50,460 bases of DNA from Minisyncoccota bacterium (GTDB lineage: Bacteria; Patescibacteriota; Minisyncoccia; UBA6257; GWB1-50-10): assembly GCA_020059585.1 (NCBI GenBank), contig JAGVBU010000016.1, positions 1 to 50,460 on the forward strand, read 5' to 3'. The number at the start of each line of letters is the position of its first letter. Within the stretch, counting starts at the first letter, position 1. Below the pieces are notes generated by a model that did no database searches, was not told the DNA's origin, and saw only the letters and a list, made by a program, of their open reading frames with translations. The position numbers were made by a program, and so were the translations under genes. Shown one piece after another: positions 1,553 to 46,177 of this stretch.

Positions 1553-1804
1553 TAGAGAGTATTAAGTAGTAAGTATTAAGTATATAGGAGAAAGCTCCAT
1601 AAATACTAAATACTTTATACTAGGCGCTTAATACTTTTGTTTGCTATAATATAGGTATAAGAATCGAAAGGTCGAGCAATGCAAGTAGCAAGTAGCAAGT
1701 ATTAAGTAGAGAGTAGTAAGTATAAATCAGTAGCTAGAAGCTAGAAAATAGAAAATAGAAATACTGAATACATAATACTAGATACTCAATACTAATTTAA
1801 TTTT
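1553..1804. repeat. Low-complexity intergenic spacer: C-poor GTA/TAG/TAA-rich half followed by its inverse TAC/ATACT-rich half
   Basis: It starts tagtagagagtattaagtagtaagtattaag right after the stop. It ends atactgaatacataatactagatactcaatac right before the next start. Words such as gtaagtattaagta recur in other spacers. Confidence 0.8.
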
Positions 1805-2400: not shown

Positions 2401-2415
2401 ATTGTGAAGTAGTAA

Positions 2416-2560
2416 GTAGTAAGTATTTGGTATTAAGTATAGACAGAAAATAGAAACTAGAAGACAGACCCAGTATCTAGGAGTTAATAGTAAGTATTCA
2501 GTATTAAGTAGTAAGTATTTTGTATTAAGTATAGACAGAAAATAGAAACTAGAAGACAGA
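2416..2560. repeat. 53-nt direct repeat (52/53 identical), 92-nt period, in a GTA/TAG-rich spacer
   Basis: gtagtaagtattt[g/t]gtattaagtatagacagaaaatagaaactagaagacaga occurs at 2416-2468 and 2508-2560. A related gtattaagtatagacaga word is at 6115-6135. Confidence 0.9.
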
Positions 2561-2652
2561 AACTAGAATCTTATTCATTTACAAAATTATCGCCACAGCG
2601 ATTTTAAATTAAAAATTACCCCGCTGTATTGAGTTTTTGCCGTAGAATGTTT

Positions 2653-2956: not shown

Positions 2957-4504
2957 ATGGTTATCAAAAAAGATTTTAAAGCGGAAAAAATCGCATATCG
3001 CGAAAGAAAGAATGAGATGCTCGAAACGGCGAAAAAGGAACTTAAGAAGTCTTTTTCGTGGAGTTTTTTTGGAAAGGCATTTGTGGTAACGCTCGGCACC
3101 GGTGTCTTCCTTTTTTTTGTGATACAGGCAGGTGGATTTTTGCAGACGCGCCTTGAAGACCTCATTCGGAACCGTTTTTCTACGCAACTCAAGGAGCAGG
3201 AAAAAACAAATACCGCAACACAGGGAACACCGAAAACATATCAATATATGCAGGAATCCGCGCCGGGGACTTCTCCGGCAACCACGCCACGGGAACCGGA
3301 CTTCAATGTTGTGACGCCCGTATCGCCGATGCAGAAAAAGGAGGAACTTGTCTCAACAAGTTTTTCAGATCTTTTCTCTGGTGTGGGACGCATCAATCAG
3401 GACGACACTACGATGTATCACGACCGTATCGCGACGGCGTATACGTTCGCACCAAAGTTCAAATGGGAACGCCGATTTTCATCTTTGTTTGATGAGACGC
3501 AACTTGTCGCGCTCGATGCGGCAGGAAGAGATGTGCGTTGTATCCGCGGAAAATGTCTCTTTCAGAAGAATATATCACTTTCGTTCAATGGACAGGAAAT
3601 CATGCTTCCTGTCGAAGTGAGGGATAAAAAGATCGAGACGGTTTCGATCGGCACGCTTTCTTCTCGCTGGGTCGTGGGAGTGGTGGTTGCCGCGGGAGGG
3701 GAGTATGAAGGATGGGTATTCTCATTTGACGGAGAACGATATGAGAAAGTATTCGGAGAAGCAAATACACCGTTTGTATCGAAATATAAAGGAACTCTCG
3801 GGTTTGGCGGCATTGATGACGACTGGATCGCGATCTACGGAGGATATGAGGGAATTGCGTTTCGCATCCGTTCGGGCGCGCCCTTTGAAAATATCTCAAA
3901 CTTTTTTGGATACCGAATGATGGGAGAGGGATTTCATCCCGTGATTCTCCGCGCGGAAAACGGACGCGTGGTGCGGTGGTATGTTTTCAGCATTACCGAC
4001 GAAAAACCCCGTCTCCTGAAACTTTCGCAAAATCCGCAGACGGGAAAAATAGAGGGAATCCTTGATTATGCTCCCGGAATTTTTATCAGCACATTTAAGA
4101 AGGCGTCGTTTAACATTCTCTCGTCGTCAGAGGACGGCGTGGTTTTGGGGGGTCTTATGACGACGCAGGGGAACGCGCAGGAGATTTGGGAACTGACCGA
4201 CGGGGGATACGCATATCCGCAGGCGGCAGAGGTGGTCTCGGTGAATCTCAATAATTATCCCGCGGAGGTGCGACACGCGACCGTGGTGGAGTCGGAACTC
4301 TATGCAGACGGCAACGCGGTGGAATATTATCTTTCGAATAACGGCGACGATTGGGTGCGCGCGGAGTTGGGAAGAGAAGTGACATTTCCCAATCCTTCGG
4401 GGACGCGGCTTTTGTGGCGCGCGCGGTTTATTCCGAACGCGGAGACGTCAAACCCTCCGTTCTTTGACAGGATAAGGGTGGACTACAAAGTAAAATTCCT
4501 GTAG
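2957..4504 (+). CDS. Hypothetical membrane-anchored extracytoplasmic protein (515 aa)
   Basis: Long ORF with coding-like composition. One TM helix (FGKAFVVTLGTGVFLFFVIQAGGF) follows a charged N-terminus. No family was recognised. The C-terminus ends ..GTRLLWRARFIPNAETSNPPFFDRIRVDYKV. Confidence 0.8.
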   Translation: MVIKKDFKAEKIAYRERKNEMLETAKKELKKSFSWSFFGKAFVVTLGTGVFLFFVIQAGGFLQTRLEDLIRNRFSTQLKEQEKTNTATQGTPKTYQYMQESAPGTSPATTPREPDFNVVTPVSPMQKKEELVSTSFSDLFSGVGRINQDDTTMYHDRIATAYTFAPKFKWERRFSSLFDETQLVALDAAGRDVRCIRGKCLFQKNISLSFNGQEIMLPVEVRDKKIETVSIGTLSSRWVVGVVVAAGGEYEGWVFSFDGERYEKVFGEANTPFVSKYKGTLGFGGIDDDWIAIYGGYEGIAFRIRSGAPFENISNFFGYRMMGEGFHPVILRAENGRVVRWYVFSITDEKPRLLKLSQNPQTGKIEGILDYAPGIFISTFKKASFNILSSSEDGVVLGGLMTTQGNAQEIWELTDGGYAYPQAAEVVSVNLNNYPAEVRHATVVESELYADGNAVEYYLSNNGDDWVRAELGREVTFPNPSGTRLLWRARFIPNAETSNPPFFDRIRVDYKVKFL

Positions 4505-4576
4505 GAATTTTACAAATTTTTAGTTTTTAATTTTGTAATTTTTAAATAAATAAGAATGACAAAATAAAACAAAAAT

Positions 4577-4930
4577 ATGCAATACGATCTTGAAGAACGA
4601 ACGGCAAAATTCGGAGAAACTGCGATCCTTTTTTGTAAAAGATTGCCACAAACTCCAATAATGAGGACTCTTTTTGTGCAACTCGTGCGCTCCGCCACAA
4701 GTATCGGCGCTAATTATATGGAAGCAAATCAGGCAAGTTCAAAAAGAGACTTTAAAAACAAAATTCGTATATCGCAAAAAGAGGCAAATGAAACAAAACA
4801 TTGGCTTCGAATGATCGCCACAGCCGACGAAAATAAAAAGAACGAATGTCAGAAACTCTGGAAAGAAGCTCATGAACTCACCCTTATTTTTGCGAAAATC
4901 TCGAAAAATATTGCAGAAAAAGAGGTTTAA
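4577..4930 (+). CDS. Four-helix-bundle protein (23S rRNA intervening-sequence protein / Avd-like family)
   Basis: Family signatures are RSATSIGANYMEA, SKRDF..K..IS.KEANET.HWL and a size of 117 aa. Confidence 0.9.
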   Translation: MQYDLEERTAKFGETAILFCKRLPQTPIMRTLFVQLVRSATSIGANYMEANQASSKRDFKNKIRISQKEANETKHWLRMIATADENKKNECQKLWKEAHELTLIFAKISKNIAEKEV

Positions 4931-5010
4931 AAATTTCTATTTGAATGTTATTTTGAAATTAAAAATTAAGCATTAAAAATTTAGTTTTATAAGAATTCCC
5001 GAGACTCGTA

Positions 5011-5019
5011 TGGTATAAT
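5011..5019 (+). promoter_or_regulatory. Extended -10 element TGGTATAAT
   Basis: tggtataataaata lies 4 nt before the ATG at 5024. The same 14-mer recurs at 17127 upstream of the 1333-aa surface protein. Confidence 0.45.
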
Positions 5020-5023
5020 AAAT

Positions 5024-6091
5024 ATGCATATTCCGATGAACTATAAAAAACACACGCTTTTATTAGCATCTGCGGTTATTCTTCTTAGCGCCGGAGTTGT
5101 GGGTGTGGCAATGGCGCAATCCGTTCTTTTTGACAAAGATATCGACCTTCAGGGAACGAAGAAGATTTTGAATGCGGCGGATATCGGAATAGGAACCACA
5201 AGTCCAGCGAGAGATTTAGATATTCGAAGTACGGGGACCACATACGCGCAAATCTTGGGAACCGGAGCTGATTATATAAATGCGGGAATCATATTACACT
5301 CCGCTGATAGCGGTTCCGACTATCGTGGGGCTGGTATTTTTCTTTATCAACAAACAAGCCAGAAAGAATGGTATATCGGTTCTCCTTACGCGGCATCGGA
5401 CAGTTTGATTATTGCAAGAAAAACCGCTGTCGCAAGCCACGACGTGACTCTTGCGCAAGACACATACGCATTGCTTAAAATAAATTCATCCGGATACGTA
5501 GGTATAGGAACGACGAATCCGAGTGCGCGGCTTACGGTATCTCCGGTATCTTCTATTTCCGCCGATATGCTTTCGGGACGGATACAAAATCTTGCGAGTC
5601 CTGTGAATACCGCGGATGCGGCAACAAAAAATTATGTGGATACGGTTGCGGCGGGGGGAACGCTTTGGACACTTGGAGCCACAGAGCTCAACATTTATAC
5701 CACCAACTCACGAGGCGTGGGTATCGGGACCGCAACCCCGCTCCACAAACTCGACATTATAGGATCCTATTATTCCCGCACGGTGGTGAAGGGGACGTGT
5801 AGCGGCACGGTTGCAATCGACTGGACTCAGGGGAACACACAGCATTGCGTCTTGGGAAGCACGCCCGTCACCTTCACATTTTCCGGAGCACAGAGCGGCG
5901 GAAACTACAAGCTCATTTTGAAACAGGATGGAACGGGATCGCGCACCGTAAGCTGGCCCGCAACAATCCGTTGGGGATCGGGAAGCGCGCCCTATCTTAC
6001 CCCTACGCCGCTTAAAACAGATTACGTGGGATTCATCTATAACGGCATCGACGGATATTATGACAGCGTTGCGTTTAATGCAAATTTCTAA
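5024..6091 (+). CDS. Secreted fibre-like protein with IGIGTT.P motifs (alternative start 5036)
   Basis: Signal-peptide-like N-terminus (MNYKKHTLLLASAVILLSAGVVGVAMA). Motifs are DIGIGTTSPARDLDI, VGIGTTNPSARLTV, VGIGTATPLHKLDI and the tail-fibre-like DAATKNYVD. It ends with double TAA stops. Confidence 0.85.
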   Translation: MHIPMNYKKHTLLLASAVILLSAGVVGVAMAQSVLFDKDIDLQGTKKILNAADIGIGTTSPARDLDIRSTGTTYAQILGTGADYINAGIILHSADSGSDYRGAGIFLYQQTSQKEWYIGSPYAASDSLIIARKTAVASHDVTLAQDTYALLKINSSGYVGIGTTNPSARLTVSPVSSISADMLSGRIQNLASPVNTADAATKNYVDTVAAGGTLWTLGATELNIYTTNSRGVGIGTATPLHKLDIIGSYYSRTVVKGTCSGTVAIDWTQGNTQHCVLGSTPVTFTFSGAQSGGNYKLILKQDGTGSRTVSWPATIRWGSGSAPYLTPTPLKTDYVGFIYNGIDGYYDSVAFNANF

Positions 6092-6212
6092 TAAGTAGCG
6101 AGTATATAGTAGACAGTATTAAGTATAGACAGAGAAAAATACTTACTACTTACTACTTACTACTTACTACTTACTACTTAATACTATCTACTAAAAGCGG
6201 TATACTAAATAC
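6092..6212. repeat. Self-complementary GTA-rich / TAC-rich spacer containing a (TACTTAC)6 heptamer array at 6140-6181
   Basis: The left arm is agtagcgagtatatagtagacagtattaagtat. The right arm is atacttactacttac... with six tandem 7-mers (five perfect, the last TACTTAA). agtattaagtat and atacttactact can pair 11/12. Confidence 0.85.
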
Positions 6213-6761
6213 ATGGAATCAAAAAATAAATTTATCGTAATCGGTGTGATCATCGTGATACTCGTAATCGGAGCGATATACATATTCGGAGGAAGTGGAA
6301 AACCGGAACCCGGGAAGGGTCCGAACGGAGAAACTCTTCCGGTGACTGCAAGTCCCCGCACCACATCGGCAACGGGAACCGAAAGTTTTGCCACAACAAC
6401 GCCGCTTCAGCCAATAACTGCAAGCGATGTAGGGAAGGAAGAAACAAAAACAGAAGTAGTGGTAAAAGATGAGGGAGGAGAGTTGCGGGCATATACTATA
6501 GAAGCAACGGCCGCAAAATTCACACCATCGGAAATTGTTGTCGACAAAGGAGATCGTGTGCAGATAAAAGTGGTCGCGGTCGGCGGGACACGAGACATAA
6601 CAATCTCGGAACCGCTTGGTCTTTATTTTGAGGTGAAAGAGGACAAACCAGTTGTATTCGGATTTGACGCGACGACCGAAGGACGTTACCGATTTTCGTG
6701 CAATAACTATTGTCCAAATGGAGGACCGGAAAGTATGTCGGGAGTGATTATTGTCAGATAG
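6213..6761 (+). CDS. Membrane-anchored cupredoxin-like protein, paralog 2 (ligand-divergent)
   Basis: Same architecture as 1805..2371: TM helix, Thr/Pro linker and a C-terminal domain (FTPSEIVVDKGDRVQIKV ... GRYRFSCNNYCPNG..SMSGVIIV). A C-x3-C replaces the C-x4-H, and the upstream His is absent. Confidence 0.85.
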   Translation: MESKNKFIVIGVIIVILVIGAIYIFGGSGKPEPGKGPNGETLPVTASPRTTSATGTESFATTTPLQPITASDVGKEETKTEVVVKDEGGELRAYTIEATAAKFTPSEIVVDKGDRVQIKVVAVGGTRDITISEPLGLYFEVKEDKPVVFGFDATTEGRYRFSCNNYCPNGGPESMSGVIIVR

Positions 6762-6810
6762 AATAGTAGATAGACAGTAGAAAGAATTAAGTATTAAGTA
6801 TAAAAAACAT

Positions 6811-7308
6811 ATGGAATCAAAAAAAATAGTAAAAATAATTGTAGGGATAATTGTGGTCGTTGTTCTTGTGGTCTTGTTTGCGTCCGGTGCGTTTCAGAAA
6901 AAAACTACGTCCTCGAACGGAGAAACGCCCGCGAATACGGAAGGAAATGCGTCGGGAACAGAGATATCGCTCGAACCTTCGGCGCCAGTGAAAGTGACGG
7001 GAGGTCCATTAGCATCGGTAGAATCTCCGACGCTATTTTATGAAATAAAGATTATCGGTGGCGAATTCTTTCCAAGCGAGGTGATTATCGAGGAGAAGGG
7101 GAATGTTCAAGTCGGTGTGGTCGCGACGGACGCGACATATGATGTTTCATTTCCCGCCCCAATTGAAAAATATCTTTTGATGAAAAAAGGACAGGCAGCG
7201 GTGTTTGGGTTCGATGCGGGTGCGATACAAGCAGGGACGTATCAATTTTCCTGCCGCGACAAGTGTCCTGAAGGAAAAAAGATGGAGGGAAGGCTTGTGT
7301 TCAAGTGA
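6811..7308 (+). CDS. Membrane-anchored cupredoxin-like protein, paralog 3 (ligand-divergent)
   Basis: TM helix (IIVGIIVVVVLVVLF), a linker, then FFPSEVIIEEKGNVQVGV ... GTYQFSCRDKCPEGKKMEGRLVF. The 3' end overlaps the convergent gene by 8 bp. Confidence 0.85.
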   Translation: MESKKIVKIIVGIIVVVVLVVLFASGAFQKKTTSSNGETPANTEGNASGTEISLEPSAPVKVTGGPLASVESPTLFYEIKIIGGEFFPSEVIIEEKGNVQVGVVATDATYDVSFPAPIEKYLLMKKGQAAVFGFDAGAIQAGTYQFSCRDKCPEGKKMEGRLVFK

Positions 7309-17155: not shown

Positions 17156-20100
17156 ATGAAATCCCCAAAGTCATTTCTAGTGTTTTTATTCGTAAGTATT
17201 ACTATTGCAGCCTTTTTTGTTGCTGTGTTTTATACCGATACGGTGAGAGCTGCGTTGTGGTCTGTGAACAGTTCCGACTCTTTAAGTCTTTCTCCCTCAA
17301 CAAATTCAATTTATCTCTCATGGTCATTGAGTCAACAAAATGGTGGGACTCAGACCATTTATCGCAACGGATCTGTCATTACTTCGGTGGGCGTAGGAAC
17401 TTCTTCGTATACGAATTCTGGACTGGCTACGTGTACCACATATTCGTATAGCGTGTGTTCCGCATATGGATGTGCTTCAGCCTCTGCATCTACAACCGGA
17501 TGCGATCCGTGTGCAGGAGTGACCTGTAATGCTTACTGTTCCGCCTCAACCGCATACTATTCTGGGTATTGTTCGGGCGGCGCGTGTTACTATTCGACCG
17601 ATAACTGTGCGAATGGGTTTTGTAGTGGTATGGTGCCATATCCAGGGTCAACGTGTACTTCTGGAGTATGTAATCGCACCGCCGGATCGACATGTCTTTC
17701 GTCAACATGTTCTGGAACGACGTATTTATACAGTGGTTATTGTTCGGCAGGTTCATGCGGCTATGGTGCGTCGTCAATCACTGCGGGTACGTGTGGCGCG
17801 GTGTGTACCCCCGGAACAACCCGAACAATGTATGCGAATTCGCAAACAGCGTGTGGTAATTCGTGTTTAAGCGAGACACAAACTTGTAATAGTAGCGGAA
17901 CGGGGTGGTCCGGATCATACACATTGACGTCATGTACCCCCGCAACACGGACAGCGTACGGAGCACTTACCTCTGCGTGTGGAACATATTCGTATACAAG
18001 TGAAACGCAAACCTGTCAAACGAGTGGTGTATGGAGTCCTTATAATTACACACTTACCTCTCCACCCTCAGCAACTACTCGCACTCGTTATGCGGCAGCG
18101 ACATCCGCTTGTGGTACGTACGGATCGAACAGTGAGACTCAATCATGTCAATCAAACGGATCGTTTAGCGGTACGTACACTCTAACTTCCCCCGCCACCG
18201 TTACTACTCGCACTCGTTATGCGGCAGCGACATCCGCTTGTGGTACGTACGGATCGAACAGTGAGACTCAATCATGCCTTGCGGGTGGATCGTTTAGCGG
18301 TACGTATACACTTACATCACCGCCATCAGCAAGCACAAGGACAATGTATGCGGCATCTTCCGTTGCGTGTGGTGGTGTGTGTTCAAGTGAAACACAATCG
18401 TGTCTTTCGAGCGGATCATGGAGCGGAACGTATGCATATAGTTCATGTAGTGTTGCGGAGTGTGCTCCGGCTGCTCCATCTGGTCTGTACGGAACACCAG
18501 GCTTAGATTCATATTCACTCTCGTGGACTGATAATTCTTCGAACGAAAGTGGGTTTAGAATTTATACCTATAGTTATTCAACTTATACTCTTGTGGGAAG
18601 TGTCGGAGTAAATGTTACAAGTTTTACCGATTCGAGTCGTTCTTGTTCAACCTCTAAGCCATACATTGTAAGAGCATATAACCCCCCCGCGGGAGAATCT
18701 GCTGATAGTAATGATGTACAGGGATTGACTTCTCTTTGTGTGCCCGCGACAACTACTCCACCAAATGGATCGTGGTCGACTTCAAAACAGTTTTGTGCAT
18801 CGGTCACTGGATATGCGACAGTTTCAACAAGAGCAAGGTTTGTAATTGGAGGAATAACATATAGTGGAAATTATGTTACAGGAAGCGGTTCAAGTTGTTA
18901 TGACTATACGGGTTCCGATGTAAATGGAATATCGTGGTCTGCTTATACGGAAGATTCGGCGGGACGTACAAGTTCAAACTCCGCTTCGTGGACGGCATAT
19001 ATTGACACAGTTGCGCCGACTCCGAATCCGCCATCTGTTACATTGTCGTCGTCCGGTTCTTCTGTGACCGCAGTGCTTTCAAGTGGATCTGACGCAACAT
19101 CGGGATTGGATTCAACGGCGTATGGATTCATGATTGATGCAGGCGGCGCATACTCCTGGCAATCTTCCGCCTCAAAAACGTTTACGGGAGTTACTTGTGG
19201 TGTATCACACACGGTGAGTGGAAAGATAAGAGATGCGGCTGGGAATGAAACATCTGTAGGAACTGCTTCAATAACTCCACTTTGTGCGCCTACGGGGGTT
19301 TCTGCATCATTTTCGTATGATAGTTCTGCAATCGAACGAGTTGATATTTCCTGGAGCGCAGTATCCGGTGCGTCATCGTATACGATTTATAGAAGAGTGA
19401 ATGCGGGGAGTTGGGCGGTAACAAATCCAACATATTGGTGGAGTGCAACAAATGCAGGAGTTGATGTAGGAACGCTTTCGTGTGGAAGTACTTATGAATA
19501 TTATATTGTTGCGAATGGCCCCGACGGATCATCTTCTCCATCCGCATCGGTATCGAAAGCATATGGCGCGCCAGGAAGTGCGCCGAGAATGTATCAAATA
19601 TGGCCGGAATCGAATTCCGCTGTTGATATGTATTGGGAGGGTGTTGAGGGTGCGCCGCGCTATAAGGTATATCGGGGAGGTTCTCTTGTTGCGACAGACC
19701 TAGGACAGGGATCGGGTTTCTGGAATACGGGGCTTCCCGCAAACACGCAATATTCCTATTATGTTACCCCATATAACGCATGTGGCGATGGACCTGCGGG
19801 AACGACATACACCGTGCGTACACTTGGAAATATAACTACGAGTCAAAGCGCATCAACACAGACATCTATTACTGCGTGTTATACCGATTCCGTGAATCCT
19901 ACTCATCCGAATCTTTCGTATGTTGATCACTACTGGATAACAAGGAGCAGTCTTGGTGGACCCGTTGATATGACTAGTGGAAATATTTATCCTTCCACAA
20001 CATGCTGGACAGATACAGGACTTACATGCGGAACAACATATTCATATCAGACGAAAGCGGGTTTTGTGATGCAGGCACAGGGAATAACGAACGGGAACGG

Positions 20101-21157
20101 CGGACTTGGTGCCGCGAGTGTTGATTCATCTTCGCAAAGTTATAGCACCGCTGCATGTGATACAACACCACCGACTATTTCCATAAACGGTTCAAGTGCC
20201 GCGTGGACGACTTCAGCAAGTGCTACAGCGACAGCGAGTGATGGTTCGGGGATCTCATATGTTCGCCACTGTTGGATTGATACGGGGGTTATGCCTCCGT
20301 GCGACCCAGGAACAACAAGCGCAAACACGTTCACAAATGGCGCTACACTTACACAAGTAACATCCGGATCGTCGTGGTATGTATGCTTTAGGGCGCGCGA
20401 TACGAACGGAAATTGGACTCCTGCGCCGACCTCGGTTAATTACGCTTCATACTGTTGGGGTCCAGTGCGAGTTGATACGACAGCACCGACACCAAATCCT
20501 CCGAGTCCTTCGGAATCGAGTACGAGTGCCGATTCTATTACGGTTGTGATGGGTACAACAGGATCTGATGCACATTCTGGAATGAATAGTACGCCGTATG
20601 GATATGCAATAGACGGGGGATCATATTCATGGACGAGTTCTGGTGCGAATACATTTTCAGGACTTTCGTGCGAAACAAATCATACAATTTATGGAAAATT
20701 GCAGGACGCGGTGGGAAATCAGACATCTGCGGGAAGTGCTAGTATTACGACCGGATCGTGTGTTGTTGCTCCTACAACGGTTAGTGCTGTGACTGCAACG
20801 GAAAAATCTGGAGGAGGTGGGCTTAGCGCATCATGGACAAATGTCGGTGCAGATGGATATAGGGTGTATTTGAAAGGAGGAAGGTCAAGCGCGAACACCA
20901 CGACACTTATAACAGACACGGGAAATGTCACGATTCCTTCACAGTCAGGACTTGACTGTCCGGGAACATATTCCGTGATTGTGGTTCCTTACAATAGTGA
21001 TATTAGTCTTAGTGGAGGCACTCATTCGAGCTGTACAAGCGCTTTTTCAGACTCATCACTTTCAGGAGTATCGGTTCCTACAAACAGAAAATGTGCGGCG
21101 CCCACCATCGGTACAGTAAGTCTTATATCGTGCACTAAAGGGTTCTTATTCGAATAA
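17156..21157 (+). CDS. Giant Cys/Ser/Thr-rich surface protein with tandem modules and FN3-like domains (1333 aa)
   Basis: N-terminal signal/anchor (FLVFLFVSITIAAFFVAVF). A Cys-rich region follows (YYSGYCSGGACYY / YLYSGYCSAGSCGY). Five modules of about 43 aa have the form TRT.YA..S.ACG....SETQ.C...G..SG.Y.L.S. FN3-like segments include SWTDNSSNESGFRIY and several SW..V.GA..Y.(I/V)YR. Two paralogous modules of about 95 aa begin DT.APTPNPPS. Confidence 0.9.
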   Translation: MKSPKSFLVFLFVSITIAAFFVAVFYTDTVRAALWSVNSSDSLSLSPSTNSIYLSWSLSQQNGGTQTIYRNGSVITSVGVGTSSYTNSGLATCTTYSYSVCSAYGCASASASTTGCDPCAGVTCNAYCSASTAYYSGYCSGGACYYSTDNCANGFCSGMVPYPGSTCTSGVCNRTAGSTCLSSTCSGTTYLYSGYCSAGSCGYGASSITAGTCGAVCTPGTTRTMYANSQTACGNSCLSETQTCNSSGTGWSGSYTLTSCTPATRTAYGALTSACGTYSYTSETQTCQTSGVWSPYNYTLTSPPSATTRTRYAAATSACGTYGSNSETQSCQSNGSFSGTYTLTSPATVTTRTRYAAATSACGTYGSNSETQSCLAGGSFSGTYTLTSPPSASTRTMYAASSVACGGVCSSETQSCLSSGSWSGTYAYSSCSVAECAPAAPSGLYGTPGLDSYSLSWTDNSSNESGFRIYTYSYSTYTLVGSVGVNVTSFTDSSRSCSTSKPYIVRAYNPPAGESADSNDVQGLTSLCVPATTTPPNGSWSTSKQFCASVTGYATVSTRARFVIGGITYSGNYVTGSGSSCYDYTGSDVNGISWSAYTEDSAGRTSSNSASWTAYIDTVAPTPNPPSVTLSSSGSSVTAVLSSGSDATSGLDSTAYGFMIDAGGAYSWQSSASKTFTGVTCGVSHTVSGKIRDAAGNETSVGTASITPLCAPTGVSASFSYDSSAIERVDISWSAVSGASSYTIYRRVNAGSWAVTNPTYWWSATNAGVDVGTLSCGSTYEYYIVANGPDGSSSPSASVSKAYGAPGSAPRMYQIWPESNSAVDMYWEGVEGAPRYKVYRGGSLVATDLGQGSGFWNTGLPANTQYSYYVTPYNACGDGPAGTTYTVRTLGNITTSQSASTQTSITACYTDSVNPTHPNLSYVDHYWITRSSLGGPVDMTSGNIYPSTTCWTDTGLTCGTTYSYQTKAGFVMQAQGITNGNGGLGAASVDSSSQSYSTAACDTTPPTISINGSSAAWTTSASATATASDGSGISYVRHCWIDTGVMPPCDPGTTSANTFTNGATLTQVTSGSSWYVCFRARDTNGNWTPAPTSVNYASYCWGPVRVDTTAPTPNPPSPSESSTSADSITVVMGTTGSDAHSGMNSTPYGYAIDGGSYSWTSSGANTFSGLSCETNHTIYGKLQDAVGNQTSAGSASITTGSCVVAPTTVSAVTATEKSGGGGLSASWTNVGADGYRVYLKGGRSSANTTTLITDTGNVTIPSQSGLDCPGTYSVIVVPYNSDISLSGGTHSSCTSAFSDSSLSGVSVPTNRKCAAPTIGTVSLISCTKGFLFE
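17816..18463 (+). repeat. Five tandem 129-bp (43-aa) coding repeats. Copies 18074-18202 and 18203-18331 share a 74-bp identical core.
   Basis: actactcgcactcgttatgcggcagcgacatccgcttgtggtacgtacggatcgaacagtgagactcaatcatg is identical at 18074 and 18203. tcgtttagcggtacgta is also shared. Confidence 0.9.
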
Positions 21158-21836: not shown

Positions 21837-22259
21837 ATGAACAAAATAAACAGAGTGCTTTTGTGGGTTGTTGCGGTGCTCGTGGTCATACTTCTTGTGC
21901 TTGTGGTGTGGCAGATATTCTTTGGAAAATCGTCGTATTACGCGGTATATATGCGGACAGGGGATCTTTATTTCGGAAAACTTGTGAAATTCCCCTCATT
22001 CGCGATGAAGAACGTATATACGCTGCAGGTGACACAGGATGAGCAGAATCCTATCCGCGTGCAAAAGTTCGCTGACGTATTCTGGGGTCCTGAAGATTAT
22101 CTGAAAATAAACAAGGATGAGGTGGTGTGGTACACGAAATTGAAGAGCGAAGGACAGCTTTCACAGCTTATCACTTCAAACCCCAATCTCGTTCCGCAGC
22201 AGCAGGTCCCGCAGCAACAGGTGCCCGTACAACAGGTTCCTGAAGATGTGAATCAGTAG
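21837..22259 (+). CDS. Small membrane-anchored hypothetical protein with a PQQQV-repeat tail
   Basis: N-terminal TM helix (VLLWVVAVLVVILLVLVVW). The C-terminus reads VPQQQVPQQQVPVQQVP. No family was recognised. Confidence 0.65.
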   Translation: MNKINRVLLWVVAVLVVILLVLVVWQIFFGKSSYYAVYMRTGDLYFGKLVKFPSFAMKNVYTLQVTQDEQNPIRVQKFADVFWGPEDYLKINKDEVVWYTKLKSEGQLSQLITSNPNLVPQQQVPQQQVPVQQVPEDVNQ

Positions 22260-22320
22260 ATAGAAGTTAGAATCTAGTAGCTAGAATCTAGAAACTAGGA
22301 GATAGGAGATGAAAGAATTA

Positions 22321-22364
22321 AAAATCTCCCTGCCACAACTTATAGATGTCGGCAGGGAGATTTT
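22321..22364. terminator. Bidirectional hairpin terminator between convergent genes
   Basis: AAAATCTCCCTGCC-16 nt-GGCAGGGAGATTTT: a 14-bp stem with A/T tracts on both sides. Its right end abuts the recR stop. Confidence 0.75.
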
Positions 22365-22966
22365 TATTTTCTGTTCTCGAGAGAGTTTCTCAGGGTTTCC
22401 TCGTCGGCAAACTCTATGTCGCCTCCCGTGGGGATTCCTCTTCCAAGCCGGGTGATCTTCGCGTGTGTGTCCTTAAATCCCTGCCGTATCAGTTCGGATA
22501 CAAAGTCGCCGAAGGTGTTCGGTCCAAGCGCAATGATGATCTCAATCCCTGCGCCGTTTTCTGATTCCTTCACTATCCGATTTTTGAGACTCTGGAGACG
22601 CTGTTTCTGAGTCTCTCCAAGGGGATTCCTGTGATCAAGCTCTCCAATGACACAGTAGTGTCCCGAAAACCCTCCCATTTTTTCTATGGAAAAAACATCC
22701 GTATCTTTTTCCACAATCGCAACAATATGAAAATCTCTTTTTTTGTTGGTGCATATGCCGCACATCTTTTCCGCGCGTGGTTTTATGAAGAAACAGCGGG
22801 GACATCTGTCGAGTGTTTTTAGTCCATTCAACGCTTCGCGAATGCGCGATTGCTCGTGTTCGGGAAGCGATGCAATGAAAAATGAAAGCCGCGTTGCCAT
22901 ACGGGGTCCTATCGCGGGAAGTTTTGAGAATGAATCTACAAAATTCTGTATTTCGGGGGGAAGCAT
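22364..22966 (-). CDS. recR: Recombination protein RecR
   Basis: HhH motif (LPAIGPRMATRLSFF), a C4 zinc finger (CPRC...CGIC), a Toprim region, and a length of 200 aa. Confidence 0.95.
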   Translation of the reverse strand: MLPPEIQNFVDSFSKLPAIGPRMATRLSFFIASLPEHEQSRIREALNGLKTLDRCPRCFFIKPRAEKMCGICTNKKRDFHIVAIVEKDTDVFSIEKMGGFSGHYCVIGELDHRNPLGETQKQRLQSLKNRIVKESENGAGIEIIIALGPNTFGDFVSELIRQGFKDTHAKITRLGRGIPTGGDIEFADEETLRNSLENRK

Positions 22967-23047
22967 AACATAAGTATAAAGTATTAAGTATAAAGTATTA
23001 AGTGTGGGAATAATGTATTTTCCTTTATACTCCCTACTAAATATTTA
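22967..23047. repeat. GTA-rich / TAC-rich self-complementary spacer
   Basis: aagtataaagtattaagtataaagtattaagt is followed by tttatactccctactaaatatttactac. Confidence 0.75.
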
Positions 23048-24394
23048 CTACTGTTCCGTGTGTACCGTGTCGATGGTGTGAAAGCTCACTTTTTCGGGAT
23101 CAAAGCGAAGACGGACATTCCCCAAGGGTCCGTTCCGGTGTTTCGCAACGATAACATCGACAATGTTCTGTTCCTCCTCGGGAACGTCGATGCGATCGCG
23201 GTCTTTGCGATAGATGAACATAACGACATCTGCGTCCTGCTCAAGCGATCCGGACTCGCGGAGATCGGAAAGGCGGGGAATCTTCACATCGCGCTTGTCC
23301 ACCTCACGGGAAAGCTGGGAGAGCGCGAGGACCGGAATATTCATTTCGCGCGCGAGCGCTTTAAGTCCTCTTGAGATTTCCGTAACCTGCTGAACCATAT
23401 TGTCGTAGCCGCCGGTTCGCGGTTGGATGAGCTGGAGATAGTCGATTACAAGAAAATCGAGCCCGTGTTCGAGTTGAAGGCGCCGCGCCGCGGAACGCAT
23501 CTGAAGCACGGAAGGGGAGGGAGTGTCATCAATAAAAAGATTTGCTTTTGAAAGCTCATCGAGTGCTTGCTGCACAAGCGCAAACTCCGTTTCGCCCTGA
23601 AGCCGTCCCGTGCGGAGACGCCAGAGGGGTATTTTTGCCTGATTGGCGATGAGGCGGTCGATAATCTGCTCGCGGGACATCTCTATTGAAAAGACACCTA
23701 CGGACTTTCCGTGCAACGCGATATTGCGCGCAATATCGAGCGCCAGCGCGGTTTTTCCGAATGATGGCCGGGCGCCAAGAATGATGAGATCGGAATTTTG
23801 GAATCCGGAAAGAATCGCATCGATCTGATGAAAGTACGAAGGAACACCGCGAAGCATGCCGTCGCCGCGATGGAGCTTTTCGAGGCGTTCATACGCATCA
23901 GTAAGCTCATCGCGAATAGGAATGAAATGCTGTGTCCGCGATTTCTGCGAAATATTGAATATCTTCTGTTCCACCGAATCAAGGAACGAATCGAATTCAT
24001 CGGATTTGAATGCTTCTTCGTTTATTTCCGATGATGCATGGATGATTGACCGGCGTACGCTCAATTCTTTCACTATCTTCGCGTAGTGTTCCACGTGCGC
24101 CGCGGTTGGCACGTTTGATACAAGCTCGGCAAGATAATCAGCTCCTCCCGAATCTTTTTTCTTTTTTTCCTTTTTAAGGAATAAGGAGACGGTAAGTACG
24201 TCCACCGGTTCGCCGCGCTCAAAGAGTGTGAGTATCGCATCGAATATCGCCTGATGCGCGGGGTGATAAAAATCAGAAGGAGTGAGAATATCGGTAACGC
24301 GGATGATTGACAGCGGGTCGATCATAAGCGCGCCGAGTACGGATACCTCGGCGTCAATATCGTGGGGAGGGAGTTTTATGTTTTTATCAGGCAT
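23048..24394 (-). CDS. dnaB: Replicative DNA helicase DnaB
   Basis: N-terminus is PPHDIDAEVSVLGALM. Walker A is GARPSFGKTALAL. Other motifs are IDYLQLI and SQLSREVE-like (LSQLSREVDKR). Length is 448 aa and no intein is present. Confidence 0.97.
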   Translation of the reverse strand: MPDKNIKLPPHDIDAEVSVLGALMIDPLSIIRVTDILTPSDFYHPAHQAIFDAILTLFERGEPVDVLTVSLFLKKEKKKKDSGGADYLAELVSNVPTAAHVEHYAKIVKELSVRRSIIHASSEINEEAFKSDEFDSFLDSVEQKIFNISQKSRTQHFIPIRDELTDAYERLEKLHRGDGMLRGVPSYFHQIDAILSGFQNSDLIILGARPSFGKTALALDIARNIALHGKSVGVFSIEMSREQIIDRLIANQAKIPLWRLRTGRLQGETEFALVQQALDELSKANLFIDDTPSPSVLQMRSAARRLQLEHGLDFLVIDYLQLIQPRTGGYDNMVQQVTEISRGLKALAREMNIPVLALSQLSREVDKRDVKIPRLSDLRESGSLEQDADVVMFIYRKDRDRIDVPEEEQNIVDVIVAKHRNGPLGNVRLRFDPEKVSFHTIDTVHTEQ

Positions 24395-24462
24395 GCAAAA
24401 GTATGAAGTATATAGTATTAAGTATTAAGTATTCGGATTTTATTCCAAACACCCACTTCTCT
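24395..24462. repeat. GTA-rich spacer with a partial inverse half
   Basis: aagtatgaagtatatagtattaagtattaagtatt ... cacttctctttacttaacac. Confidence 0.7.
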
Positions 24463-25869
24463 TTACTTAACACTTTTTCGGACAAGCGGTCCGAGAGGCG
24501 TATCCTCTATTGTATATCCTAACGCATTGATTTTTTCTCTCAAGGCGTCCGCGCGGATAAACTGTTTATGACTTCTGGATAACTCACGTTCGTCCATATA
24601 CTGAGCGATTTCCGGGGGTATTATGTGTTCGGGAAATTCAAATCCGACCATTTTCATCACGCGACGAAGTGTATTTCGCATATATGTTGCATCCGAGGGA
24701 GAGAGGGAGAATACGTTTTTTTCATTAACCTCGTTTATAAATGTATGAATTACCGCGATGGCTTCGGGGGAATTGAAATCATCATCCATTGCGCGGATAA
24801 ACTCTTTTTCAAACTTCTTGCATAGGGAGCGTGTTTCCGCATTGGAAGCGCCCGTTCCTTTTTTCGAAACAAACGCGAGTTTTTCGGTAAATTCGGAAAT
24901 TTGGGAAAAATTCGTTTTTACATATGCCACTGCCTCATCTGAAAAATCGAGCGGCGTGCGGTAATGCTGTTGGAATACCATGAAGCGGAATTCATCGGGG
25001 GACATTTTTGAGAGAATCTCCTCCACAGAAACGAAATTTCCAAGGCTTTTCGACATTTTTTGTCCGCGCACCTTGAGAAATCCGGTGTGCATCCATATCT
25101 TCACAAATGGTTTTTTCCCCGATGCGGATTCTTGTTGCGCGATTTCCGCATCGTGGTGGGGGAACTTCAAATCGATGCCTCCGCCGTGGATATCATATTG
25201 GGGTCCGAAAAAGGATTCCGTGATGGCGGTGTCTTCAATGTGCCATCCGGGACGTCCGCGTCCGATAGATGCGTGCCATGAGGGTTCCCACTCCGCATCT
25301 TCTTCCGAGGTAAATTTCCAAAGACAGAAATCTCCCGCATTTCTTTTCTTTTCGCTTGCGTCAATGCGCGATACGCCATCCTCCGCCTGCGCGGTTGTTC
25401 GATGGGAGAGCTTTCCGTATTCGGGAAAACGGGAAAGATCAAAATACCATCCATCACCATCTATCTTATACGCGCAATCTTTTTCGATAAGAGTTGAAAT
25501 TTGTTTTATGATCGCGGGAATGTAATCGGTTGCGCGCGCGTATCGATCCACGGAATCGATACCGAGAATCTTTGTGTAATCAAGAAACATTTTTTCATAT
25601 TTTCGAGAAATGGAATCCCATGAGGCGTTTTCCTGTTTTGCTTTGGCGATGATTTTATCATCAACATCGGTGATGTTCTGAAGATACACAAGCTTCAATC
25701 CGCGGTTTCGGAGATAACGGACGATAATATCGAACGACATAAACGTGCGGAGATTTCCGATGTGAGGCGCGTCATATACGGTCGGTCCGCAGACAAAAAG
25801 CTTCAGTTTTCGGAAAAGAGGCTTTTTGAGAAACTCTTTTTTATCGGTTAATGAATTATAGATACGCAT
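24463..25869 (-). CDS. cysS: Cysteine--tRNA ligase
   Basis: The class I motifs are HIGNLRT (HIGH) and KMSKS. CGPTVYD lies near the N-terminus. Length is 468 aa. Confidence 0.96.
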   Translation of the reverse strand: MRIYNSLTDKKEFLKKPLFRKLKLFVCGPTVYDAPHIGNLRTFMSFDIIVRYLRNRGLKLVYLQNITDVDDKIIAKAKQENASWDSISRKYEKMFLDYTKILGIDSVDRYARATDYIPAIIKQISTLIEKDCAYKIDGDGWYFDLSRFPEYGKLSHRTTAQAEDGVSRIDASEKKRNAGDFCLWKFTSEEDAEWEPSWHASIGRGRPGWHIEDTAITESFFGPQYDIHGGGIDLKFPHHDAEIAQQESASGKKPFVKIWMHTGFLKVRGQKMSKSLGNFVSVEEILSKMSPDEFRFMVFQQHYRTPLDFSDEAVAYVKTNFSQISEFTEKLAFVSKKGTGASNAETRSLCKKFEKEFIRAMDDDFNSPEAIAVIHTFINEVNEKNVFSLSPSDATYMRNTLRRVMKMVGFEFPEHIIPPEIAQYMDERELSRSHKQFIRADALREKINALGYTIEDTPLGPLVRKSVK

Positions 25870-25947
25870 AGCAATAAGTATTAGGTATATAGTATCAAGT
25901 ATAAAGTGTGAGATATAAAATACTTACTACTTCATACTTTCTACTTA
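25870..25947. repeat. GTA-rich / TAC-rich self-complementary spacer
   Basis: aagtattaggtatatagtatcaagtataaagt is followed by aaatacttactacttcatactttctacttacta. Confidence 0.75.
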
Positions 25948-26913
25948 CTAGGGGCTCCAGTTCAGGATGATATCCGTCACGACGGGGGTTTCGGTTTGAA
26001 GGAGATCGCTTGCGAGGCGGACTTTGTAACGGAGATACCGGTATCCCACAAAGTCGGTTCTTAGTACGCAGATGGGAACGTTCGGAAGGGCGCATCCCAC
26101 GCCGCCATAGAGGGAACTTGTGCACGAAAGGCCGTAATAAGTGGAACTGTCGCCAGAGGGACCGCGATACTGCCACGGGCCGCTTGGGCTGTTTGATGCC
26201 GCAATCTGAAAGTCGACGCACGTGCCTCCGGGGGAATCGCCTTGCCAGATGATGCTGTTCAAAAGGGCTCCCGCGGTCGTCTCCGTGTCGAATATCGATG
26301 ATTCAAGATAGCCGAGGGAACTTGTCGCGCGCCATGTGGTATTCACTTTGTAATCGGACGATGCGCAACTGGAATTATTCGCGCAATTGAAACTTATCCA
26401 TCCCGCGATGTCATTCCACGCGTATCCGGTGAAGTCGCCGTCGGAGCTTATTTCCACTTTGTAATTCGAGGTGGTGCACTGATTCGTTCCTCCATGCGTT
26501 GATTGATCGCAATTGAAACTTATCCATCCTATGGTGTCATTCCACGCGTATCCAGAAAGCACTCCCGACGCATCGCCATTCGGACAGGTTCCGTCCGTAT
26601 TGTGGGGTCCCGGACCATTGCAGATGCCGTAATTTGATGATGCGCATACGCTTCCCAAGGGGCTCGTCGTGCAATCGAGGGACATATCGCCGATGGATGA
26701 ACTTGCATATCCTTCAACACGGGTTCCTTTCACAAGCACGGTGTCGGTGCCGTTGAAATCCCACCATCCGTTCGTGTCATCCCACGCGTGGCGCGTTTCC
26801 TGCGTGGCGCCGATGTTTGTTTCCGCGCGGACAAGGGGAAACGCGATAAAAGAGAAAAGCGCTCCGCAAAGGATTCCAAGCGCCGCGTATGCGTATTTTT
26901 CCGTTCGCGTCAT
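25948..26913 (-). CDS. Secreted repeat protein with GY.WND..GW(I/W).FN motifs
   Basis: Signal-like N-terminus (AALGILCGALFSFIAFPLVRA). Repeats are WDDTNGWWDFNG, GYAWNDTIGWISFNCD and GYAWNDIAGWISFNCA, with a 126-bp DNA period at 26383/26509. The C-terminal module ends RYLRYKVRL..DLLQTETPVVTDIILNW. Confidence 0.85.
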   Translation of the reverse strand: MTRTEKYAYAALGILCGALFSFIAFPLVRAETNIGATQETRHAWDDTNGWWDFNGTDTVLVKGTRVEGYASSSIGDMSLDCTTSPLGSVCASSNYGICNGPGPHNTDGTCPNGDASGVLSGYAWNDTIGWISFNCDQSTHGGTNQCTTSNYKVEISSDGDFTGYAWNDIAGWISFNCANNSSCASSDYKVNTTWRATSSLGYLESSIFDTETTAGALLNSIIWQGDSPGGTCVDFQIAASNSPSGPWQYRGPSGDSSTYYGLSCTSSLYGGVGCALPNVPICVLRTDFVGYRYLRYKVRLASDLLQTETPVVTDIILNWSP

Positions 26914-35397: not shown

Positions 35398-35470
35398 AAA
35401 TAGTAGCTAGTATTTAGTAGAAAGTAGTAAGTATAAATTCGAATCAAGATGCCGAATATATCTAAATAAC

Positions 35471-41544: not shown

Positions 41545-41710
41545 GAGGAAGAATAAATTAATTTCCAGACTGCAAATATCAAATAACAAACAATTTCGAA
41601 ATTTCAAACACAAATTTTCACACAGTCTCTTTTTGTCATTTGAATTTCAATATTGGATATTGTTTGTAATGTGATACTTGTGATTTCGGATTTTCCGCAG
41701 CCTATTATAT

Positions 41711-46043: not shown

Positions 46044-46177
46044 AATAAAAAATTTCCAATTCTCAATTTTCAAATCCCAAATAATTTCCAATATGCCAAT
46101 TTCCAAAATTCAAGACAGAAAAACCTTTCCGGTATACATATAATTGTTTTTTGGATGTTGGTGTTTGGGATTTTATC

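Follow-up and report, generated by a model that had tools for sequence, protein, structure and literature searches.

What are the repetitive spacers that separate many of the genes on a 50,460-nt contig of a Minisyncoccota bacterium (JAGVBU010000016.1; this whole stretch is referred to below as the window)? The first-pass annotation had described a shared set of short words in these spacers, GTA/TAG-rich after stop codons and TAC-rich before start codons, and had proposed that each spacer unites a read-through backstop, a terminator hairpin without a U-tract and a promoter. We found that the word set consists of tandem heptanucleotide repeats: Tandem Repeats Finder (TRF) returned period-7 arrays at every tract named there, with copy numbers of 2.9-6.6. 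With a probability of about one half, we consider the spacers to be exchangeable hairpin cassettes of tandem heptamers at gene junctions, which lack an open reading frame (ORF) and resemble the intervening sequences (IVS) of 23S rRNA. One arm would follow the upstream stop codon and the complementary arm would reach the downstream start codon. Neither the 7-nt periodicity nor the link with IVS elements and their protein (IVP) was part of the earlier description.

The arrays located with TRF at these tracts are of three kinds:

AGTATTA, GCAAGTA and AAGTATT arrays: 1558-1583, 1681-1722, 2407-2440, 2484-2532, 6092-6125, 6782-6801, 22972-23003, 24399-24433, 25876-25907 and 35401-35437
TAGAAAA and TAGAAGC arrays: 1732-1761, 2537-2568 and 22261-22310
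Complement-type arrays: 1600-1622, 1759-1795, 6140-6185 (TACTTAC, 6.6 copies, 97% matches) and 25919-25947

On the sense strand, G-bearing and stop-dense units of the types AGTAnnn and TAGAAnn follow the stop codons, and their complements, nnnTACT, run up to the next start. The period belongs to intergenic DNA, where the autocorrelation of bases was 0.341 at lag 7, 0.323 at lag 14 and 0.319 at lag 21 over a baseline of ~0.28, versus 0.252 at lag 7 in coding DNA, which shows a period-3 signal only. When strict arrays with periods of 4-12 were sought in the window, only period 7 appeared (six regions, 206 nt, all intergenic), and 13 of the 15 window arrays are intergenic. The words are rare in coding sequence: the intergenic/coding enrichment in the window is 30-fold for GTAAGTA (p = 4e-11), 42-fold for AGTATTA and >180-fold for GTATTAAGTA, which occurs 12 times between genes and 0 times within them.

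The arrays are oriented relative to genes. AGTA and TACT occur in a ratio of 34:12 in the 45 nt 3' of stops and of 10:27 in the 45 nt 5' of starts (Fisher p = 2.5e-5), a count that is non-independent within one array and on which 7-8 separate spacers agree; the polarity announced by the first-pass annotation is therefore real. Its C-poor, stop-packed tracts were also recovered, since in array spacers the first 42 nt beyond the stop contain 6.1 stops, counted over three frames, and 5.8% C, versus 2.3 stops and 16.5% C in other genes. Two details had to be corrected. Reverse-complement words do precede starts in general, but at 6762-6810 a GTA-type array stands directly before a start; and 24441-24462, listed among the GTA/TAG tracts, has little C in its sense orientation, yet GTA words are absent from it.

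The paired spacers, together with a promoter-like site between two hairpins, are as follows:

1553-1640, plus strand: hairpin 1 of the 1553-1804 spacer; the AGTATTA-type 5' arm (1558-1583) begins 2 nt 3' of the stop of ORF 11-1552, and the TAAATAC-type 3' arm lies at 1600-1622
1642-1650, plus strand: extended -10-like TGcTATAAT between hairpins 1 and 2, read from the sequence; possibly a promoter, which would place hairpin 2 in a ~150-nt leader of the cupredoxin gene at 1805
1681-1795, plus strand: hairpin 2 of the same spacer, with three arrays, GCAAGTA/AGTAAGT (1681-1722), CTAGAAG/ATAGAAA (1732-1761, unpaired) and the complementary AATACTn (1759-1795), which stops ~10 nt before the ATG at 1805
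6092-6212, plus strand: stop-to-start spacer with a GTA-type 5' arm (6092-6126) and a 3' arm of 6.6 TACTTAC copies (6138-6192)
22967-23047, minus strand: dnaB-to-recR spacer, with GTA-type units downstream of the dnaB stop, then TTWATAC units as far as the recR ATG
24395-24462, minus strand: cysS-to-dnaB spacer, with a C-poor 5' part, then AATACTT-type heptamers to 5 nt before the dnaB ATG
25870-25947, minus strand: spacer between a 321-aa gene and cysS, with a GTA-type arm from the stop codon and a TAC-type arm ending 2 nt before the cysS ATG

We compared the predicted RNA folds of these spacers with those of dinucleotide shuffles, from which the z-scores given here derive. The segment 1553-1640 folds at -28 kcal/mol (z = -5.36) and 1670-1804, which contains hairpin 2, at z = -2.92; in both cases 0/200 shuffles were as stable. 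The others reached z = -2.18 (6088-6212), and, on the minus strand, -2.59 (25870-25950), -1.6 (22967-23050) and -2.5 (24395-24465), in keeping with the self-complementary halves reported earlier. The 11/12 pairing noted at 6092-6212 is also correct, as agtattaagtat differs at one position from agtagtaagtat, the reverse complement of atacttactact. The paired spacers are predicted to form imperfect hairpins of 20-30 bp that run from stop to start; at the three consecutive junctions of the X-cysS-dnaB-recR cluster (X being the gene before cysS), the stem starts 0-3 nt from the stop and ends 2-3 nt from the ATG. The orthologous spacers of a close relative, the metagenome-assembled genome (MAG) SKS1.bin17 (locus L001), fold at z = -3.3 to -0.7.

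A protein search placed the window among Patescibacteria, its closest public relatives being MAGs of the Paceibacteria/Jorgensenbacteria type. Its DnaB is 96% identical to that of L001 and 65-71% to many others, and two further loci, L361 and L448, belong to one genome of a close relative, Candidatus Paceibacter. The window is a Patescibacteria chromosome of a Paceibacter-like lineage. In ~25 relatives whose DnaB is 64-82% identical, cysS, dnaB and recR mostly overlap or follow one another at 0-15 nt, and the two transketolase genes of distant relatives are 1-4 nt apart; the junctions were therefore compact ancestrally and gained their spacers later. Overall, unselected Paceibacteria loci (1.24 Mb) carry 0.33 heptamer arrays per kb of intergenic DNA, versus 2.2 in the window.

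Exact look-ups of the window's own proteins gave no record. We then recovered ten close relatives (DnaB 77-96%) by protein search and exact-protein look-ups. Every recovered junction in them is a 60-146-nt spacer of inverted heptamer arrays, so that the palindrome is retained throughout, while the repeat unit is not. At least four unrelated unit families occur at these junctions, and the family varies by genome and by junction:

GTA/TAC: the window, L001 and L445-L448
AAATCTC/GAGATTT: L444
CTAAATC/GATTTAG: L441 and L449
AAAGTTT/AAACTTT: L450

Among the alternative-family spacers, 7/10 fold at z <= -2. It is the architecture that persists; the sequence changes, and so does the order in which the G-bearing and C-bearing arms follow each other.

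The comparison of the window with L001 revealed that 4-fold degenerate sites differ by 53% (299/561), whereas the three GTA/TAC spacers differ by 17-22%, the dnaB-recR spacer being 83% identical. This same spacer is wholly replaced in L441 and L442. The flanks of the dnaB-recR junction are 98.1% and 99.0% identical between L442 and L001, and yet the spacers (L001 7339-7427, 89 nt; L442 4339-4456, 118 nt) are unrelated. The break between matching and unrelated sequence falls 9 nt upstream of the dnaB stop on one side and 1 nt upstream of the recR ATG on the other, and the last two codons of DnaB go with the spacer allele (EQ-TAG versus QE-TAA). Together, the 17-22% divergence and the exchange between L001 and L442 indicate that the spacers drift slowly in place and are occasionally replaced whole. 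One change by whole repeat units was seen, a 14-nt (two-unit) indel among the X-cysS orthologues, other spacer lengths (78, 93, 95 and 101 nt) differing by non-multiples of 7; whole-spacer replacement is the main difference between strains.

The resemblance to IVS elements comes from a further cassette of the window, which contains a gene:

4505-5023, plus strand: IVP cassette, with inverted AATTTTT-type arms (4505-4576 and 4931-5023) around the PF05635/TIGR02436 gene 4577-4930

Pfam and NCBIfam assign the product of 4577-4930 to a four-helix-bundle family annotated as "23S rRNA intervening sequence protein". Its arms form a clear inverted repeat by local alignment (z = 7.5), and a minimum free energy test of the same arms gave a non-significant z = 0.7. 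We collected 80 homologues (62-78% identical, L281-L360) from many classes of the candidate phyla radiation (CPR), of which 74 loci could be analysed. A significant inverted repeat (z > 3) flanks the IVP ORF in 69/74 loci, and AATTTTT-type arms are near-identical in 68/74, with AATTTTTAATTTTGTAATTTTTAAAT on the upstream side and ATTTAAAAATTACAAAATTAAAAATT on the downstream side; the latter arm reaches the ATG of the next gene in most of the examples listed.

Moreover, IVP copies share sites and arms with the empty palindromes. In L450 an IVP gene (4389-4745; cassette 4345-4836) occupies the dnaB-recR junction that is "empty" in the window, and the empty X-cysS palindrome of L450 shares 19/20 and ~36/40 nt with the arms of that cassette. 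IVP genes also lie within GTA/TAC palindromes in an Ignavibacteria MAG (L164, 4418-4696) and a Parcubacteria MAG (L419, 7306-7659), and one stands beside (AGTATTA)n in a Bacteroidota MAG (L138, 6949-7329). PF05635 exceeded the Pfam gathering threshold in the window and in L450, L164, L419, L138, L009, L202, L208, L422 and L431. IVP subfamilies associate with particular arm families; the single IVP of the window has arms of another family than the GTA/TAC spacers. The protein is not a general driver of the arrays, since most of them have no IVP gene nearby: among 120 cross-phylum loci, a single-seed jackhmmer search found none, and four seeds matched 3 loci, in which the L138 gene and one L164 gene are flanked by arrays.

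The same repeat is present well outside this lineage. An exact search for (AGTATTA)3.5 returned >120 loci in Bacteroidota, Ignavibacteria, Patescibacteria and some Proteobacteria. In co-directional contexts, sense-strand arrays of the G type are located at the upstream stop in 23/26 cases by AGTA/TACT typing and in 29/33 by G/C typing, and their median distance to the stop is -1 nt (AGTA/TACT typing), therefore the array itself supplies the stop codon. C-type arrays lie at the next start in 27/39 cases (G/C typing), at a median distance of 13 nt (AGTA/TACT typing). This polarity is significant overall (Fisher p = 1e-6) and holds separately in Bacteroidota, Ignavibacteria and Patescibacteria. 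In these three phyla C-type arrays extend to 2-6 nt of the ATG, and within 40 nt upstream of starts we counted 28 C-type versus 5 G-type arrays. Wherever two arms pair (12 loci, three phyla), the G-type arm comes first, with 0 reversed. Polarity as a mere by-product of the palindromes can be rejected in part, as unpaired G-type arrays are still found at stops (21 vs 4). Over 120 of these loci, arrays occur in 29% of co-directional, 34% of convergent and 9% of divergent spacers (p < 0.001), a depletion that links them to the DNA 3' of gene ends. The GTA/TAC handedness is thus fixed over three phyla.

Very long perfect (AGTATTA)n arrays exist in these phyla, some exceeding 150-200 nt (L101, L144). 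It should be noted that many (AGTATTA)n matches sit at the ends of fetched loci or contigs (L092, L093, L095, L106, L120, L145, L153, L160 and others); such repeats may commonly break short-read assemblies.

Other heptamer families help to delimit what the polarity means. Within the window, AAATTYC-type arrays occur at 4505-4576, 4931-5023, 41545-41690 and 46044-46110, the last two being:

41545-41690, plus strand: second heptamer family, CAAATAT/AAATTTC ... GAATTTC/TTGGATA, with the C-bearing arm first and a weak predicted hairpin (z = -0.64)
46044-46110, plus strand: single-arm AATTTCC-type array after the mraZ stop (fold z = -1.35)

The statement that the opposite arrangement was not seen thus holds for the GTA/TAC family, but other families, at 41545-41690 and in relatives, place the C-bearing arm first. 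A general rule of a G-bearing arm after stops was rejected, as all heptamer arrays of the 1.24 Mb of unselected Paceibacteria loci together show no polarity (G/C typing: C-type, 9 at starts and 8 at stops; G-type, 5 at starts and 6 at stops). Codon content as the cause of the handedness also fails, (AGTATTA)n having TAA in all frames on both strands; ATG, GTG and TTG are absent from either strand. Replication fares no better, as the minus-strand genes at 22364-26913 carry arrays in their own sense orientation. The cumulative GC skew rises over the whole window, from which we infer a probable single replication direction across it. Two arrays lie near the 3' end of the uninterrupted 513-aa ORF 11-1552 (AAATTGC, 3.4 copies, 1203-1236; AAATCTC, 4.4 copies, 1412-1442), which suggests that arrays are capable of invading coding sequence.

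If the spacers are indeed IVS-like cassettes, IVS-type elements would here have colonised the gene junctions of a Paceibacter-like lineage and not rRNA helices. In IVS elements, terminal inverted repeats make a 28-bp stem whose loop contains an S23p/IVP ORF; RNase III cleaves in the middle of this stem, and the elements are considered selfish DNA that spreads by horizontal transfer (PMC4990558). The 23S_rRNA_IVP family, PF05635, is also found in rRNA insertions of CPR bacteria and is described as an uncharacterised "23S rRNA intervening-sequence protein" (PMC11270868). By analogy, the working form in the window would be the RNA hairpin of the co-transcribed spacer, whose stem may be cut or bounded as the IVS stem is, either by RNase III-type processing or as a 3'-end barrier. 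Such processing would separate the cistrons and leave a downstream message that starts near its AUG, which would suit a genome apparently rich in leaderless mRNAs. The 3' arm of the TAC family may additionally have been co-opted as a -35/-10 pair.

Several observations count against the spacers being such cassettes. Several arrays of the window are unpaired:

2401-2570, plus strand: composite G-type block in two tandem copies, AAGTAGT/AAGTATT heptamers then ATAGACAGAAAATAGAAACTAGAAGACAGA, just 3' of the canonical terminator 2378-2400
6762-6810, plus strand: G-type arrays filling the whole spacer, TAGAyAG and 2.9 copies of AAGTATT; TATAAA stands 6 nt before the ATG at 6811
22260-22311, plus strand: TAGAAGC/TAGAATC/TAGGAGA heptamers that begin right behind the stop of gene 21837-22259; a canonical bidirectional terminator comes next (22320-22363)
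35398-35440, plus strand: AGTAGAA/AGTAGTA array of the G type, 3' of the stop of the transketolase N-terminal gene and kept in L361

No significant fold was found for the single-arm spacers 2401-2570 (z = 0.07), 6762-6810 and 35398-35470, and most (AGTATTA)n arrays of other phyla have no detectable partner within 130 nt; the hairpin cannot, therefore, be the whole story. All cassette copies lie between protein-coding genes and none in 23S rRNA, which is why we call them IVS-like rather than IVS. Neither rnc nor a transposase or reverse transcriptase gene was found among the 46 proteins of the window, which covers 50 kb only. Concerted evolution of the repeats, and not selection, could be the reason why the spacers diverge slowly, and the break point inside dnaB, linked to its last codons, fits ordinary homologous recombination between alleles as well as mobility of an element. 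Covariation, assessed in small alignments of 2-6 orthologues, is compatible with conserved stems without being decisive (4-6 orthologues). Across 6 orthologues the cysS-dnaB consensus stem comprises 18 pairs, and 96% of its cells are paired (12/500 shuffles equal), but its covariation is weak, with 1 compensatory pair only, and the dnaB-recR stem has no compensatory pairs and 7 broken cells.

The alternative that survives best, although we consider it unlikely, is the role first proposed: each spacer would be a compact expression module, combining a stop backstop, a U-tract-free terminator hairpin and, in its TAC arm, the promoter of a leaderless next gene. Stops in all frames, predicted hairpins and -10-like boxes are indeed present. 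TTAATA (6178-6183) and TATACT (6201-6206), separated by 17 nt, end 6 nt before the ATG at 6213; the same TTAATA-17-TATACT arrangement ends 6 nt before the recR ATG (22966), and dnaB and cysS each have a WATACT box 5-7 nt before the ATG, conserved in L001. TATAAT-like hexamers are concentrated 4-9 nt before the starts of the window genes (13, versus 5.4 expected), and a Shine-Dalgarno (SD)-like motif occurs in only 5/46 genes. This combination is a leaderless signature and suggests that leaderless mRNAs may be widespread in the host genome. Such boxes, several with TGn, precede ~12 starts, e.g., those at 5024, 14161, 25948, 30622, 33358, 34537 and 46151.

However, a promoter scan of the array spacers gave no more promoter-like matches than shuffles did, so that the -10-like boxes announced in the upstream halves exist without being in excess. 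A G-to-C palindrome would also put the same "promoter" on the other strand, facing the upstream gene, and in other phyla arrays end 2-6 nt from the ATG, too near for a -10 box. In spacers of other families the hairpin is kept while the last 25 nt before the recR ATG are unrelated, as judged by comparing sequences and not by a -10 scan. The terminator part meets a similar difficulty. The heptamer stems are A/U-rich and have no T-tract, whereas an intrinsic terminator has a G+C-rich stem and a T-tract. A terminator scan reported conventional terminators only, outside the heptamer stems (e.g., 2378-2393 and 4490-4513), and folding revealed a conventional hairpin at 22320-22363; canonical hairpins with T-tracts adjoin arrays at 2378-2400, which precedes them, and at 22320-22363, hence the arrays do not replace terminators. 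In the 120 cross-phylum loci, only 9% of divergent spacers, where nothing but promoters is needed, contain arrays (described as 4-5 times rarer there), which speaks against a terminator/promoter unit as the main role. What the boxes support is a putative secondary promoter use of the TAC-type 3' arm, specific to this lineage.

We see a slim chance that the arrays are ordinary heptamer microsatellites, generated by replication slippage in dispensable spacers, with hairpins, polarity and conservation as by-products of tolerance and concerted evolution. Among the long simple sequence repeats (SSRs) of prokaryotes, heptamers form the commonest class, for which an origin by polymerase slippage has been suggested (Mrazek 2007, as cited in PMC4679880 and PMC4692102). 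The 14-nt indel between X-cysS spacers, the very long perfect arrays of other phyla, often at fetched-locus or contig ends, and the patchiness among relatives (0.33 versus 2.2 per kb) would all be accounted for. Slippage, however, yields neither inverted arms nor the replacement of a spacer by an unrelated family between strains that are 98-99% identical. It also leaves unexplained the palindrome found at every junction recovered from the ten relatives, the arms shared with IVP cassettes, and a junction-specific non-repeat core that is kept (18/~23 nt, by eye) while 4-fold sites are half saturated.

It is just as doubtful that the repeats are putative binding sites for a protein or the ribosome that control translation or mRNA fate, be it a G-free leader (UAAUACU)n aiding SD-independent initiation or arrays bound by a cognate IVP/Avd-like protein. 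The placement of C-type arrays 2-6 nt from starts in three phyla (28 versus 5 G-type within 40 nt), the few SD-like motifs of the window and the match between IVP subfamilies and arm families agree with this, as do the translational regulators that MacGregor proposed for TAACTGA repeats just upstream of starts (PMC4679880) and the changed output of a recO reporter after deletion of heptamer repeats in Nostoc/E. coli (bioRxiv 10.1101/2022.06.06.494920); against it, families with a G-bearing arm beside the start exist, a leader function leaves the G-type arrays after stops unexplained, and the sole IVP of the window has arms of another family than the GTA/TAC spacers.

A far wider version of the cassette reading seems to us improbable as a whole. 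According to it, heptamer palindromes and PF05635 (IVP/Avd-like) genes would belong together in a single, widespread class of IVS-like cassettes that spans Patescibacteria, Ignavibacteria and Bacteroidota and whose members insert at stop-start junctions of operons and are exchanged between strains; each IVP subfamily would recognise its own arms, and the stems would be RNase III-type sites that uncouple cistrons and give mRNAs starting near the AUG. If this were true, the long-unexplained heptamer repeats of bacteria would largely be cargo-less arms of that class.

The genes around the spacers are those of a housekeeping chromosome. The 46 proteins of the window include DnaB, CysRS, RecR, a split transketolase, DnaK/DnaJ/GrpE/HrcA and L10/L12, and the window also encodes MraZ/RsmH, a penicillin-binding protein, a Mur ligase, glycosyltransferases, cupredoxins, LTD proteins and one tRNA. 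In a search with Rfam at gathering thresholds, tRNA-Val was the sole match, with none in the spacers, and the window contains no rRNA. After the 140-aa gene, the array is TAGAAGC-type in the window (22260-22311) and GTAAGTAGTAAG in L001 (8086-8097); the unit family has turned over there with the sense-strand polarity kept. A long non-coding stretch 3' of arrays (2570-2956) has a TATACT box at ~2674-2681 and a canonical terminator (2725-2744) with a T-tract, and may be a small-RNA gene without a match in Rfam. Inside ORF 17156-21157, which encodes a 1333-aa surface-type protein, a 129-nt tandem repeat is present in ~2 copies (18074-18355, 80-92% identical) and in 2.5 copies in L001.

How do these spacers compare with known systems? 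Heptanucleotide repeats have been known since 1990, when Mazel reportedly described the short tandemly repeated repetitive (STRR) heptamers of cyanobacteria. They are the commonest long SSRs of prokaryotes, without an established function or origin (PMC4679880, PMC4692102). TAACTGA repeats of Beggiatoaceae, Cyanobacteria and Bacteroidetes often lie directly upstream of starts (PMC4679880), and the GGGAATC repeats of Xanthomonas form 70-75 convergent inverted pairs, potential stem-loops at a mean of 28 nt from the upstream ORF (PMC4692102). The window arrays share with them the tandem 7-nt units in few to dozens of copies, the dispersed and almost wholly intergenic location and the patchy phylogeny, as well as the position, before starts for TAACTGA and just 3' of the 5' neighbour for the Xanthomonas pairs. 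They differ in their A/T-rich AGTAnnn/TAGAAnn units, in arms that fill the whole stop-to-start spacer, in whole-spacer replacement between near-identical strains and in the PF05635 gene inside the same palindromes. We found no earlier report in the searchable literature of heptamer repeats in Patescibacteria, of a link between heptamers and IVS/IVP or of stop-to-start cassettes in CPR genomes, and no bacterial paper with the exact repeat strings. Taken separately, both heptamer repeats and IVS elements have been described before (PMC4679880, PMC4692102, PMC4990558). The present locus joins heptamer repeats and PF05635, as the same inverted arms are empty or IVP-bearing at the same junction in related genomes, and this link makes the unexplained heptamer repeats of bacteria testable. 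With so few SD motifs and so many starts of leaderless appearance, gene-start and operon prediction in CPR genomes is also affected.

Repetitive extragenic palindromic (REP) sequences, bacterial interspersed mosaic elements (BIME) and miniature inverted-repeat transposable elements (the REP-RAYT system, RAYT being the REP-associated tyrosine transposase) are short imperfect palindromes after stops within operons, and their co-transcribed hairpins can stabilise the upstream mRNA. The likeness lies in dispersed intergenic palindromes with autonomous and cargo-less relatives; unlike them, the window cassettes have period-7 arms and no single conserved palindrome, and none of the 46 proteins in these 50 kb is a RAYT or transposase. 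The early mRNAs of phage T7 carry RNase III processing hairpins between cistrons. These T7 sites, which are not repeat arrays, are likewise long imperfect intercistronic stems, a pure analogy for cassettes known here from sequence; if the cassettes were cleaved as in T7, the upstream message would keep a hairpin at its 3' end and a new 5' end would arise close to the following start.

The closest likeness in construction is to the 23S IVS of Coxiella and Leptospira (PMC4990558) and the rRNA insertions of CPR bacteria (PMC11270868), which have an inverted-repeat stem of ~20-30 bp and an optional PF05635 ORF in the loop. They, too, are sporadic and seemingly horizontally transferred, and versions without an ORF exist. 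Excision by RNase III is a feature of the 23S IVS and would apply to the window cassettes by analogy only. Compared with the 23S IVS, the cassettes of the window lie between protein genes and not in helices 9, 25 or 45, have arms made of heptamers and, for the most part, carry no ORF.

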